From NCBI RefSeq assembly GCF_055900595.2, contig NZ_CM148325.1: a DNA stretch of 64,000 bases. The stretch is one strand, 5' to 3'. Shown here piece by piece: positions 4,575-50,642 of the stretch. Each line of letters begins with the position of its first letter. The first letter of the stretch is position 1. A program made the position numbers and the translations under genes. The notes under the pieces were generated by a model. That model ran no database searches. It had not been told where the DNA came from and saw nothing but the letters and a program-made list of their open reading frames with translations.

Positions 4575-4886
4575 TCGTGTTTATGACCTGTTAAAACTTC
4601 GCGAAGTGATAGGGCAGTATAAAGGGTACAGTGTGAAATTCCAGACTCTTACCTGATTGATGATTCTCTATTCTCCCGTGATATTTATCATCCTGCATTG
4701 GGGGAAATAGATGTACAAGCGCCATTTTGCTGTACAAATAACCTACAAAAAGCCTAACGAAATTAATTGCAAATAAACGAAGATTGCTGGAAATTATGCT
4801 GATGTTAATTATTTGTGAAATAGTTAACAAGCGTTATAGTTTTTCTGTGGTAGCACAGAATAATGAAAATTGTGTAAAGAAGGGTA

Positions 4887-11154: not shown

Positions 11155-11320
11155 AATATTCTAAATAACCCTTCGTTTCTAATAACCCTATAATTAATCA
11201 ACGAAATTATAATGTTTCTAAAATTGGAATATAATTTATAAACATTATTTAAATGTTGTTACTTAAGTGTTACCGTTGATGCCGCGCAAATCTCACCTGC
11301 AATAAAGCGACTAAAAGTAA

Positions 11321-36904: not shown

Positions 36905-38095
36905 GTGACCACCCGACAGCATTCGTCGTTTGCTATTGTTTTTATCCTTGGCCTGCTGGCCATGTTGATGCCGCTGTCGATTGATATGTATCTGCCCGCG
37001 CTACCGGTAATTTCAGCGCAATTTGGCGTACCTGCGGGCAGTACGCAGATGACCCTCAGTACTTATATTCTGGGCTTTGCGTTGGGGCAGTTAATCTACG
37101 GGCCGATGGCAGACAGTTTTGGGCGTAAGCCGGTGGTTCTTGGCGGTACGCTGGTGTTTGCCGCCGCCGCGGTGGCGTGTGCGTTGGCACAAACCATCGA
37201 TCAGCTGATTGTGATGCGTTTCTTCCACGGTCTGGCTGCGGCTGCGGCCAGCGTGGTTATCAACGCTTTAATGCGTGATATCTACCCGAAGGAAGAGTTC
37301 TCACGGATGATGTCGTTTGTCATGCTGGTGACGACCATTGCACCGCTGATGGCACCGATAGTTGGCGGCTGGGTGCTGGTGTGGCTGAGCTGGCATTACA
37401 TCTTCTGGATCCTCGCCGTAGCGGCGATTCTGGCTTCGGCAATGATCTTCTTTCTGATCAAAGAAACCTTACCACCGGAGCGTCGCCAGCCTTTTCACAT
37501 TCGTACCACTATTGGTAACTTTGCGGCGCTGTTTCGTCATAAGCGTGTCCTGAGTTATATGCTGGCCAGCGGTTTCAGCTTTGCCGGAATGTTCTCGTTC
37601 CTGAGCGCCGGACCGTTTGTCTACATTGAAATTAACCACGTCGCGCCGGAAAACTTTGGTTATTACTTTGCGCTAAACATTGTTTTCCTGTTCGTGATGA
37701 CCATCTTTAACAGTCGCTTCGTCCGCCGTATTGGCGCGTTAAATATGTTCCGCTCGGGGTTGTGGATACAGTTTATTATGGCGGCGTGGATGGTCATCAG
37801 TGCGCTGCTGGGGCTGGGATTCTGGTCGCTGGTAGTTGGCGTTGCGGCGTTTGTGGGCTGCGTGTCGATGGTGTCATCTAATGCGATGGCGGTCATTCTT
37901 GATGAGTTTCCCCATATGGCGGGAACGGCATCTTCGCTGGCAGGAACCTTCCGTTTTGGCATAGGGGCAATTGTTGGCGCATTGCTTTCTCTTGCGACCT
38001 TTAACTCTGCATGGCCGATGATTTGGTCAATTGCATTCTGCGCAACCAGCTCCATTCTCTTCTGTCTGTACGCCAGTCGGCCGAAAAAACGGTGA
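36905..38095 (+). CDS. bcr: MFS multidrug efflux transporter Bcr (bicyclomycin resistance), 396 aa (GTG start)
   Basis: 12-TM MFS profile, motif GRKPVVLGG; follows rsuA as in E. coli. Confidence 0.93.
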
Positions 38096-38427
38096 TCTAT
38101 TGCACAACGAGGAAGCTAAAAGGCTTCCTTTGTTGATGCATGTCAACCACAAATCCATCATTCCCCCGATATATGTTTATTTTATGTAAAATCAATTTAT
38201 GTAAAAAGTCACATCATTGTAGTTAAAAAGGTTGAGTTAGATCGCAGAAACGGGTACATATAGCCCCGCAAACGTGACCACGCCCGCAGATATTATTTAA
38301 ATCAGAGCCATAGAGGCCACGCTGGCGAGGCATCAATCTTTACGATCTGTATAAAGACGGATTGTTGATGATGTGTTAAAATTGATGTAAACAAATTGTG
38401 AAGTAAATGTGCTTCCGGGGAAAATAA

Positions 38428-38772
38428 GTGACTTCATTACAACTCTCAATCGTCCATCGACTGCCGCAGAACTATCGCTGGTCTGCTGGTTTCGCAGGTT
38501 CGAAGGTTGAACCGATTCCGCAAAATGGACCGTGCGGTGACAACAGCCTGGTGGCGCTTAAATTGCTTAGCCCGGATGGTGATAATGCATGGTCGGTGAT
38601 GTACAAACTAAGCCAGGCGTTAAGCGACATCGAAGTTCCATGCTCGGTACTGGAGTGTGAAGGTGAGCCGTGCCTGTTTGTAAATCGCCAGGACGAGTTT
38701 GCTGCAACATGCCGATTGAAAAATTTTGGTGTGGCAATTGCCGAACCCTTCTCAAACTACAATCCTTTTTAA
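38428..38772 (+). CDS. yejG: Uncharacterized protein YejG, 114 aa
   Basis: 114-aa ORF convergent with yejF; matches conserved enterobacterial YejG position. Confidence 0.85.
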
Positions 38773-38775
38773 GCG

Positions 38776-40365
38776 TCAGCTCAACGCCAGTAGCTGACGC
38801 GTATACTCCTGCTGCGGTGCGGCAAACACGCGCGCGCACGGTCCTTGTTCCACTACTTCCCCTTGTCGCAGTACGATAACCTGATGACATAACGCGCGGA
38901 CAACGTGCAAATCGTGACTGATAAACAAATAGGCCAATTGATGCTTTTGTTGCAATGATTTCAATAGCGTCAATATTTGCGCCTGTACCGTTTTGTCGAG
39001 CGATGATGTTGGTTCATCAAGAATGATCAGCGAGGGCTTAAGAATTAACGCCCTGGCAATCGCAATACGTTGCCGCTGACCACCAGAGAACTCCGCCGGA
39101 TAACGGTGGCGTGTTTCAGGATCTAATCCCACTTCATGCATCACGGCTATCACTTGTTGTTCGCGTTGCACGGCAGAAAGCATCGGCTGGTGAACCCGTA
39201 AACCTTCCTCGATAATTTGCAAAACGTTGAGTCGTGGGTTGAGCGAGGAGTTAGGATCCTGAAATACCACCTGAATGCGATGGCGAATAGGTAATAGCTG
39301 ACGGCGGTTTAAATTTTGCAATGGCTGACCGTCAAAAATGATGCTGCCCTGAGAGTTAATCAGTCGCAGCAGCGCCAGTCCCGTCGTGCTTTTCCCGGAA
39401 CCGGACTCGCCCACTAAACCCAGTGTTTCACCCGCCCGTAGCGTAAAACTGATGTTTTTCACCACCACATTATGATCCACAATGCGCTTCAAAATCCCTT
39501 TGCGAATGGGGAAGGCAACCTGAAGCTGTTCAACATCTAGCAACGTTGAGGCAGGTTCTGGCAATGGGACCGGGTCGCCTGACGGTTCACTGTTGAGTAG
39601 CTTTTGTGTGTAAGGATGAGTGGGTGAGGCAAATAGCGTAGCAGCGTCATTTTGCTCGACACAGCGACCGTTTTGCATTACCGCCACGCGGTGAGCCAGT
39701 TTTCTGACAATACTGAGGTTATGAGTAATAAACAGCATGCCCATATTCAGCTCGCCTTGCAGTTCGCGCAACAGCTGTAAAATCTGCGCCTGGACAGAGA
39801 CGTCCAGCGCGGTGGTCGGTTCATCGGCAATTAATAATTCCGGTCGCGTTAACAGCGCCATCGCAATCATCACCCGCTGGCGTTCGCCGCCGGAGAGCTG
39901 ATGTGGATAATCTGTCAGCCGTTTTGCCGCCTGGCGGATACCGACGCGATCAAGGCAGTTAAGAATTTCGCCACGAGCCGCTTCCCGACGCATCCCGCGG
40001 TGGAGTGAAAGCACTTCATAAAGCTGTTTTTCCAGGGTATGCAATGGATTTAACGACACCATCGGTTCCTGAAAAATCATGGCAATCTTATTACCGCGTA
40101 CACCGCGTAACGTTTGATCGCTGGCATGAAGCAGCGATTCGCCATGAAAACGAATATCGCCGGAGAGATATTCAACCGGCGGGGAAGGGAGCAGGCGTAA
40201 AATTGACAGCGCGGTAACGCTCTTACCTGAACCAGACTCACCCACCAGCGCCAGCGTTTCGCCAGCCGCAATCTGTAGTGAAACATCATTGACTACTGTG
40301 CGTACGGTTTGCTGATGGCGAAAACCCACCGACAAATTTTCAATCGCTAACAGAGTTTGCGTCAT
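38776..40365 (-). CDS. yejF: Peptide ABC transporter ATPase YejF (two fused ABC domains), 529 aa
   Basis: Two Walker A motifs ([13 protein letters not shown] and [13 protein letters not shown]), two signature motifs ([18 protein letters not shown]); start at [11 protein letters not shown]. Confidence 0.94.
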
Positions 40366-40366
40366 G

Positions 40367-41392
40367 CTACACCGCCTTATTAGGATCAAATGCGTCGCGG
40401 ACGGCTTCACCAATAAAGATCAGCAAAGACAACAATATCGCCACCGACAAGAAGGCGGTGATCCCAAGCCACGGGGCCTGAAGGTTATTTTTCCCTTGTA
40501 ACAGCAGTTCGCCGAGTGACGGTGAACCGAGCGGCAGACCGAAGCCGAGGAAATCGAGTGAGGTCAGGGTGGTGATCGAACTACATAAAATAAACGGTAA
40601 AAAGGTGAGGGTAGCGACCATGGCATTTGGCAACATATGACGCAGGATGATACTGCGATCGCTGACGCCAAGCGCCTGCGCCGCACGGATGTAGTCGAAA
40701 TTACGGGTACGTAAAAACTCCGCCCGCACCACGCCGACCAGACTCATCCAGCCAAACAAGACGGTAATTGCCAACAGCCACCAGAAGTTAGGCTGTACGA
40801 CGCTGGAAAGTAAAATAATCAAAAACAGCGTCGGCATCCCCGACCATACTTCAATAAAACGTTGCCCCCAGAGATCGACTTTACCGCCGTAATAGCCTTG
40901 TAGCGCCCCCGCCAACACGCCCATCACGCTGGAGCAGAGGGTCAGCATCAGGCCAAACAGAACTGAGATCCGCGTGCCATAGAGAATGCGCGCCAGCACA
41001 TCGCCGCCATTGGCATCCGTTCCCAGCCAGTTTTGCCGGGAGGGTGGAGAAGGGAAGGGCTTATCGGTAGCAAAGTTGATACTGGTAGCACCAAAGCGAA
41101 TCGGTGCCCACAGTACCCAGCCTTTATCTTCCAACCGCTGTTTCAGCCACGGGTCCTGATAATCAGCCTGGCTTGCCAGCGGACCGCCAAAATCGCTTTC
41201 GCTGTAGTTTTTCAACAACGGGAAATACCAACTGCCGTCATAACGTACCAGCAACGGTTTATCGTTGGCGATAAGTTCAGAACACAAACTCAAACCAAAT
41301 AAGACGAGGAACATCCATAACGACCAGTAGCCGCGACGGTTATGACGAAAACGCGCCCAACGGGCCTGATTGACGGGGCTGAGTCGCGACAT
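40367..41392 (-). CDS. yejE: Peptide ABC transporter permease YejE, 341 aa
   Basis: Polytopic permease; ends 1 bp before the yejF start. Confidence 0.93.
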   Translation of the reverse strand: MSRLSPVNQARWARFRHNRRGYWSLWMFLVLFGLSLCSELIANDKPLLVRYDGSWYFPLLKNYSESDFGGPLASQADYQDPWLKQRLEDKGWVLWAPIRFGATSINFATDKPFPSPPSRQNWLGTDANGGDVLARILYGTRISVLFGLMLTLCSSVMGVLAGALQGYYGGKVDLWGQRFIEVWSGMPTLFLIILLSSVVQPNFWWLLAITVLFGWMSLVGVVRAEFLRTRNFDYIRAAQALGVSDRSIILRHMLPNAMVATLTFLPFILCSSITTLTSLDFLGFGLPLGSPSLGELLLQGKNNLQAPWLGITAFLSVAILLSLLIFIGEAVRDAFDPNKAV

Positions 41393-50421: not shown

Positions 50422-50642
50422 AGGAATCACGTCTTAGTAACGATTGATTAACAATGACAGTGTAAAGTTATATGACAGAAATTGAAATTGGTCTGGATTG
50501 TTAATGCGATGAAGTGTGAGGGCGATCAATGAACTGGTGAATATTACGGGAGAACTATATTCAGGAAGCGCAAAATAGAAGATTGGTATAATAAATTAAA
50601 AAGGGACAGCCTGAGCTATCCCTTTTCTGCATGCGGCTGAAG

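Follow-up and report, generated by a model that had tools for sequence, protein, structure and literature searches.

What do the short TGTAAA repeats in front of yejG do, and which protein reads them? The window that we analyzed, a stretch of 64,000 nucleotides, is E. coli DNA, reversed relative to MG1655. According to the open reading frame list and the RefSeq annotation, the gene order is radD (minus strand), rsuA (plus), bcr (plus, 36905 to 38095), yejG (plus), and yejF (minus); the names bcr and yejG were confirmed by the RefSeq annotation of identical and near-identical E. coli DNA. The bcr-yejG spacer extends from 38096, just past the bcr stop codon (38093 to 38095), to 38427, just before the GTG start codon of yejG at 38428. 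Its 332 bp have 38% G+C and differ from MG1655 at 4 positions. The yejG coding sequence (38428 to 38772, plus strand; open reading frame list and RefSeq) specifies 114 amino acids with a single recognized domain, Pfam PF13989 (E = 5.8e-51), and the structure of the protein has been solved (PDB 6BI6, titled “Uncharacterized protein YejG”). As an initial annotation of this DNA had stated, yejG is convergent with the yejABEF side, its stop codon (38770 to 38772) facing the end of the yejF open reading frame at 38776, with 3 bp between the genes. A perfect 9-bp hairpin (GCGTCAGCT / AGCTGACGC, 38773 to 38800) begins 1 base past the yejG stop and spans the convergent yejF stop; on the plus strand it has a predicted stability of -16.6 kcal/mol (z = -2.9), and it is without a T-tract. 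The mechanical open reading frame list gives yejF (38776 to 40413) a TTG start and 545 amino acids, whereas RefSeq has 1590 bp and 529 amino acids, an artefact that arises because the list takes the first possible start codon. Published data also place a Cra ChIP-exo site inside yejG.

At its bcr end, the spacer carries the intrinsic terminator of bcr (38111 to 38135, plus strand), with the stem GGAAGCU/GGCUUCC (hairpin 38111 to 38128), the loop AAAA, and then TTTGTTG. The fold of 38090 to 38145 has a stability of -21.7 kcal/mol (z = -4.35), matched by none of 200 shuffles. A scan of the spacer for consensus promoters and terminators returned nothing useful, missing this terminator and both of the mapped promoters described below. 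We rejected a structured RNA in the spacer region, as an Rfam scan of 37500 to 39200 at a permissive threshold gave two sub-threshold matches at chance level (18.8 bits against a threshold of 80, and 18.3 bits against a threshold of 36).

The initial annotation had pointed to a direct repeat occurring twice within 30 bp, and the sequence bears this out: exact copies of TTTATGTAAAA lie at 38181 to 38191 (copy 1) and 38196 to 38206 (copy 2), on the plus strand and 15 bp apart from start to start, with no other exact match on either strand of the 64 kb. The related TGTAAA motifs that it placed near 38380 to 38410 are there as well, in the form of a third, related copy, AATTGATGTAAA, at 38380 to 38391 and a series of TGT-type hexamers at 38363 (TGTTGA), 38374 (TGTTAA), 38386 (TGTAAA), and 38397 (TGTGAA). 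Could the 11-mer duplication be a product of chance or slippage that serves no purpose in itself? Of 2000 dinucleotide-preserving shuffles of the spacer, 0.35% contained an exact direct repeat of at least 11 nt at an offset of at most 30 nt, and the same test gave 0.1% when restricted to the AT-rich core. About 70 species retain the two TGTAAA cores at the 15-bp spacing, and the 46 bp that hold both copies are identical in 5204 of 5426 complete E. coli genomes (96%). In favor of chance or slippage, exact identity beyond TGTAAAA is specific to E. coli and Citrobacter, and the flanks of copy 2 differ in other genera. Even so, this explanation is scarcely credible, being largely refuted by the conservation. 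The motifs in the spacer are real, non-random, and conserved. Two further candidates were considered and rejected. The ATG-TAA start-stop pairs within each repeat form small open reading frames, but these lie upstream of the P2 start (see below), where transcription is unlikely; a minus-strand promoter with TTTACA as its -35 element has no acceptable -10 element at the proper spacing.

Which protein, then, binds the motifs? The initial annotation proposed an unknown regulator, but ArcA binding, ArcA-dependent repression of yejG, and two start sites were all published in 2013. Park et al. 2013 (PMC3798270, supplementary tables S1 to S6) found two ArcA binding regions upstream of yejG by ChIP-seq. 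The first, “yejG1,” gave peaks in both replicates (8.2- and 8.5-fold) and has a box of 18.8 bits, with four direct repeats in TTGTTGATGATGTGTTAAAATTGATGTAAACAAATTGTGAAGTG (repeat scores of 8.6, 9.7, 9.8, and 5.3 bits) at -26 to +18 of the start. The second, “yejG2,” gave a 1.9-fold peak at 2276488 in replicate 2 only and has a box of 17.6 bits; the repeats in its site, ATGTTTATTTTATGTAAAATCAATTTATGTA, score 8, 8.5, and 1.4 bits, and the third is a different 10-mer and not the second TGTAAA. In anaerobic E. coli, yejG was 11.9-fold up in ΔarcA, and it is among the 85 operons listed as directly ArcA regulated (PMC3798270). In Chung et al. 2013 (PMC3798280), sigma-70 binding upstream of yejG was resolved into two events, and primer extension in aerobic cultures mapped start sites to U00096.2 positions 2,276,299 (P1) and 2,276,419 (P2). 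Myers et al. 2013 reported a sigma-70 occupancy at yejG of 1461.7 under aerobic conditions and 56.1 under anaerobic conditions; in their aerobic-versus-anaerobic table the yejG ratio is 4.0, a figure whose direction (aerobic higher) we take from the neighboring rows. In Salmonella, yejG was 2.94-fold up in ΔarcA and 5.8-fold induced by peroxide, and an ArcA site was predicted there that is orthologous to window positions 38364 to 38378. A pH-specific (acid) induction of yejG has also been reported. With responses to oxygen, acid, and peroxide on record, a defined promoter map could help reporter experiments on the role of yejG.

The published yejG1 and yejG2 sequences match the window exactly at 38362 to 38404 and 38173 to 38203, respectively. 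Their positions (38362 to 38405 and 38173 to 38203) therefore fix the coordinate mapping, placing P1 at about 38388 and P2 at about 38268. The last base of the four-repeat site, 38405, is A here and G in K-12 (...GTGAAGTA versus ...GTGAAGTG in MG1655), a strain difference from which no effect is expected. Copy 1 falls within the yejG2 box and the motifs at 38380 to 38410 fall within yejG1; thus, the motifs first noticed in this spacer are mostly published ArcA sites at the two yejG promoters. In this respect, the finding is for the most part ordinary. The regulation of yejG by ArcA was already known in 2013, along with the sites and the promoters, and the weight of the observation as a discovery is low, as ArcA control and both binding regions stand in the supplementary tables of a genome-scale study (PMC3798270). 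Our modest additions are three: the 92-bp module made up of the upstream ArcA box and P2 is unusually rigid, with about 90% conservation in about 80 enterobacterial species; the ArcA register leaves one of the two repeat copies unaccounted for; and conservation extends to a CRP-like site and an FNR-type palindrome. Work on copy 2 and the surrounding CRP-like and FNR-type elements is incremental promoter dissection of a known kind.

To score the sites ourselves, we built an ArcA log-odds matrix from 114 published boxes, with yejG1 left out (training range, 9.6 to 21.9 bits), and counted as an ArcA box at least two TGTTAA-like direct repeats spaced 11 bp from center to center and scoring 9 to 21 bits, as in known boxes. 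Boxes of this kind begin at 38362 (19.1 bits), 38385 (19.0 bits), and 38173 (17.9 bits). These rank among the six best matches on both strands of the 64 kb, which are rcsD (21.5 bits), mqo (21.0 bits), 38362, 38385, yeiQ (18.5 bits), and 38173, so that 3 of the 6 top matches sit within the 332-bp spacer; the seventh match has 13.4 bits. The rcsD, mqo, and yeiQ matches (4802 to 4819, 11256 to 11273, and 50437 to 50454, with 21.5, 21.0, and 18.5 bits, respectively) are the published box sequences of those genes; they are not independent evidence because those boxes sat in the training set.

The upstream site, yejG2 (38173 to 38203, plus strand; -95 to -65 of the P2 start), has TGTTTA as its first direct repeat (DR1, 38174 to 38179) and TGTAAA as its second (DR2, 38185 to 38190). 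DR2 is the core of copy 1, and copy 1 as a whole corresponds to the linker plus DR2 of this box. The promoter-proximal operator, yejG1 (38362 to 38405, plus strand; -26 to +18 of P1), consists of TGTTGA, TGTTAA, TGTAAA, and TGTGAA; the third motif described above is its third repeat, and the motifs at 38380 to 38410 are its third and fourth repeats. The exact 11-mer duplication is therefore not the functional unit that it first appeared to be, since copy 1 pairs with the upstream TGTTTA and copy 2 is out of register. Copy 2 starts 15 bp after copy 1, so that the two copies do not keep the register of one ArcA site. Taken alone as an ArcA-type repeat, copy 2 scores 8.7 bits, 15 bp off DR2; as part of any 18-bp ArcA box, the best score that it reaches is 4.7 bits.

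In their TGTTAA-like direct repeats at 11-bp spacing, with 3 to 4 repeats over sigma-70 promoter elements and anaerobic repression, the yejG sites resemble the multi-repeat ArcA operators of icdA, astC, acs, and paaA, and yejG1 and yejG2 are themselves listed in the same study (PMC3798270). They differ from the other operators in that the upstream site is weakly occupied and far from the start (-95 to -65 of P2), and in having copy 2, a strong repeat-like hexamer, out of register by 15 bp. Among the promoters that PMC3798270 names as footprinted are icdA, acs, trxC, astC, phoH, and paaA; its main text makes no mention of yejG, and our search found no ArcA-P footprint or gel shift at the yejG promoter.

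Since the first half-site of the upstream box equals the PhoP consensus, we also asked whether TGTTTA-N5-TGTAAA is a box for PhoP or another regulator of the OmpR/PhoB family, which would explain the acid induction of yejG. The PhoP consensus is (T/G)GTTTA, repeated at 11-bp spacing. A PhoP box, (T/G)GTTTA-N5-(T/G)GTTTA, thus shares with the ArcA box here the protein family, the 11-bp geometry, and an identical first half-site, and the induction of yejG is pH specific. The second half-site, however, is TGTAAA, two positions off TGTTTA, and the ortholog variants are nearer to ArcA: many genera have TGTTTC, and Erwinia has TGTTGC-N5-TGTGAA, in which both halves are common ArcA repeat variants. 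The box also lies at -95 to -78 of P2 instead of the usual PhoP position, where it replaces the -35 element, and a literature search for yejG together with PhoP returned the Salmonella ArcA paper alone. We consider control through such a box very improbable. A CpxR box, GTAAA-N5-GTAAA, likewise has the GTAAA pentamer in direct orientation, but the gap between the pentamers here is 10 nt (38191 to 38200), not the defining 5. TyrR, OxyR, IHF, Fis, CpxR, RstA, OmpR, and LacI-family operators were set aside for poor fit or wrong spacing; these are weak exclusions, made by eye against consensus sequences.

How old is this arrangement, and which parts of it are constrained? The initial annotation had suggested phylogenetic footprinting of the yejG upstream region, and the outcome was strong conservation across 80 species. 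For this, we took 80 loci encoding YejG relatives, one genome per species, and aligned the upstream 345 nt; the genera include Escherichia, Salmonella, Citrobacter, Klebsiella, Kluyvera, Kosakonia, Enterobacter, Leclercia, Mangrovibacter, Siccibacter, and Franconibacter, along with the distant Serratia and Erwinia, and a genus-level alignment covered 31 genera. Positions 38174 to 38265 (92 bp) are about 90% or more identical to E. coli, 38266 to 38350 are poorly conserved, and 38372 to 38425 are conserved again. The conserved upstream block contains the ArcA box, both TGTAAA cores, an A-tract, TTGAGT, a 17-bp spacer, and TACATATAG, and it ends about 3 nt before the P2 start. Because the whole 92-bp block is kept, including positions that are uninformative for ArcA, its conservation cannot be credited to ArcA alone. 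The ArcA boxes are well kept nonetheless: a score of 10 bits or more is reached by the box at 38173 in 79 of 81 sequences, by that at 38385 in 75, and by that at 38362 in 62. Together with the published ArcA binding at both clusters, the strong conservation upholds the view that the motifs are DNA bound by a regulatory protein.

The pattern within the block also bears on a less specific explanation, in which the AT-rich repeats serve as sites for nucleoid proteins (Fis, IHF, or H-NS) or as an UP-element-like contact for the alpha subunits of RNA polymerase, with no specific regulator. The region is 29 to 35% G+C, an A-tract (38225 to 38229) lies just upstream of the P2 -35 element, and a Fis ChIP-seq peak overlaps a nearby predicted FNR site, all of which would suit such a role. 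But conservation is position specific: the hexamers are fixed, and variation within the block is greatest in the linker TCAATTTA that separates the TGTAAA cores. A requirement for composition predicts otherwise. In addition, the match to the IHF consensus WATCAR-N4-TTR is poor (TGT for TTR), its ATCAA varies between genera, and ArcA occupancy and dependence are documented. A purely architectural function is therefore improbable.

The two promoters differ in how they are tied to the upstream box. From the ArcA box to the P2 -10 landmark, the distance is 79 to 81 bp in the 73 species in which both landmarks were found, whereas the P2-P1 distance varies by more than 100 bp among species; therefore, the upstream ArcA box belongs to P2. 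In complete E. coli genomes, the 71-bp P2-P1 linker is identical in 709 of 5426. The two ArcA sites are 189 bp apart in E. coli, equivalent to 18 helical turns, but we rejected a phase-locked loop between them, as the distance ranges from about 95 to 212 bp among species and helical phase is not kept.

Judging from the sequence, P2 (38232 to 38268, plus strand) probably has TTGAGT (38232 to 38237) as its -35 and TACATA (38255 to 38260) as its -10 element, separated by 17 bp, with the start at about G38268; this stretch is nearly invariant in the 80 species. P1 (38374 to 38388, plus strand) appears to have an extended -10 element, TGtTAAAAT (38374 to 38382), and starts at about 38388. The P2 spacer (TTAGATCGCAGAAACGGG, 38231 to 38254) is almost invariant across genera, which is unusual for promoter spacers, and it carries a conserved GATC (a Dam site) as well as a CRP-like box. 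Window position 38235 corresponds to an RpoH-holoenzyme SELEX peak at U00096.2 2276452. At 38156, the window has C where MG1655 has T, which turns the -10 element of the “constitutive” promoter of Shimada 2014 (TTGATG-17-TATCAT) into CATCAT; that guessed promoter falls in a poorly conserved stretch.

Given the published occupancy, ArcA-dependent repression, and start sites, and the matrix match and conservation computed here, the spacer is very probably the yejG regulatory region, with two sigma-70 promoters that are both controlled by phosphorylated ArcA. ArcA is the response regulator of the ArcAB redox system, and in its phosphorylated form it would bind the tandem TGTTAA-like direct repeats 11 bp apart. 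At P1, it would occupy the four-repeat operator (38362 to 38405) over the -10 element and start, and so block RNA polymerase when oxygen is limiting. The upstream box (38173 to 38190; TGTTTA-N5-TGTAAA, with copy 1 as its second half), at its fixed distance from P2, most likely helps to shut P2 off. ArcA bound there may spread over weaker in-phase repeats toward the -35 element, or it may dislodge an activator on the adjacent DNA. A continuous ArcA array reaching the P2 -35 element is unsupported, however: the in-phase repeats at 38217 (4.2 bits) and 38229 (5.1 bits) are weak, and 38195 and 38206 score below zero. Among the points against ArcA control as set out here, the upstream ChIP peak is weak (1.9-fold, one replicate), copy 2 is unexplained by the 11-bp register, and a position of -95 to -65 is unusual for simple steric repression.

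What might copy 2 be for, if not for ArcA? In 88% of species it still resembles a repeat. Klebsiella, Franconibacter, Siccibacter, and Intestinirhabdus have lost its TGT while the adjacent AAAAGTCAC is kept almost everywhere; therefore, the identity of the 11-mers in E. coli is partly coincidental, and the constrained element is ...TGTAAAAAGTCACA. The conserved core at copy 2, AAAAGTCACA, is the most conserved stretch of the block. It is tempting to see here a separate class I CRP site, T(A/G)TGT-AAAAAG-TCACA (38198 to 38213), that includes the 3′ part of copy 2 and activates a weak P2. In E. coli, this candidate reads TATGT-AAAAAG-TCACA; its center at 38205.5 lies 62.5 bp upstream of the P2 start at 38268 (-62.5); class I sites center near -61.5, -71.5, and so on, and the difference is within the primer-extension mapping error, which we estimate at about 1 nt. 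Of the CRP consensus TGTGA-N6-TCACA, the right half, TCACA (38209 to 38213), is perfect, the distance to P2 is fixed across species, and Shimada et al. 2011 found the bcr/yejG spacer to be a cAMP-CRP genomic-SELEX target, at a low resolution that places binding somewhere in the spacer.

Our CRP matrix is symmetric and was built from 148 SELEX-derived boxes (Shimada et al. 2011, Table S3), with the two yejG entries left out; it was thus trained on predicted rather than footprinted boxes, with a training median of 11.1 bits. Against it, the E. coli version of 38198 to 38213 scores only 7.6 bits, and a score of 8 bits or more is found in 28% of sequences. Position 38199 is A or G, and with G the site becomes TGTGT-N6-TCACA and scores 11.4 bits, as in the variant TGTGTAAAAAGTCACA, found in 7 sequences, the G being present in several genera. 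Scores of 6 bits or more occur at about 124 positions across the 64 kb, and a match of such strength within 332 bp is therefore unsurprising. The boxes that Shimada et al. predicted lie elsewhere and could explain the SELEX signal. One of them, TGCGATCTAACTCAAC (38231 to 38246, minus strand; Table S3), overlaps the P2 -35 element and spacer and contains the conserved GATC; our matrix gives it 10.1 bits, and 91% of sequences score 8 bits or higher there. The other, GGTGATCTATTGCACA (38091 to 38106), lies over the bcr stop and is the best CRP-matrix match in the region (11.7 bits), reaching at least 8 bits in only 32% of species; it may be clade specific or a chance match.

We therefore put forward only tentatively that copy 2 belongs to such a CRP site. 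It is possible, to the same modest degree, that ArcA at its adjacent, partly overlapping box would repress by displacing this activator, a step that would complement the ArcA explanation and not replace it. A precedent is cited in PMC3798270, where the paaA promoter has ArcA repeats overlapping a CRP activator site; as there, ArcA-P and CRP might compete at yejG for adjoining or overlapping DNA. The two cases differ in that CRP binding at 38198 to 38213 is proposed from a matrix and conservation, with a weak half-site in E. coli. As a whole, the idea that copy 2 and the adjacent AAAAGTCACA form a distinct CRP-like activator site at -62.5, rigidly coupled to P2 and displaced by ArcA, is doubtful. 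If it is true, the yejG promoter would integrate carbon and redox signals in a form nearly unchanged across Enterobacteriaceae.

One more conserved element lies farther upstream. The spacer contains an FNR-consensus-like palindrome, TTGATGCATGTCAA (38133 to 38146), directly after the bcr terminator and at about -128 from P2. The FNR ChIP peak table of Myers 2013 (Table S5) does not include yejG; their Table S6 has a predicted FNR site at U00096.2 2276541, and it is this site that the Fis ChIP-seq peak overlaps. Variant counts and the alignment of 31 genera show that the palindrome, TTGAT-N4-ATCAA, is intact in most other genera, with E. coli departing from it at a single position; the element may add a third input to the yejG promoter.
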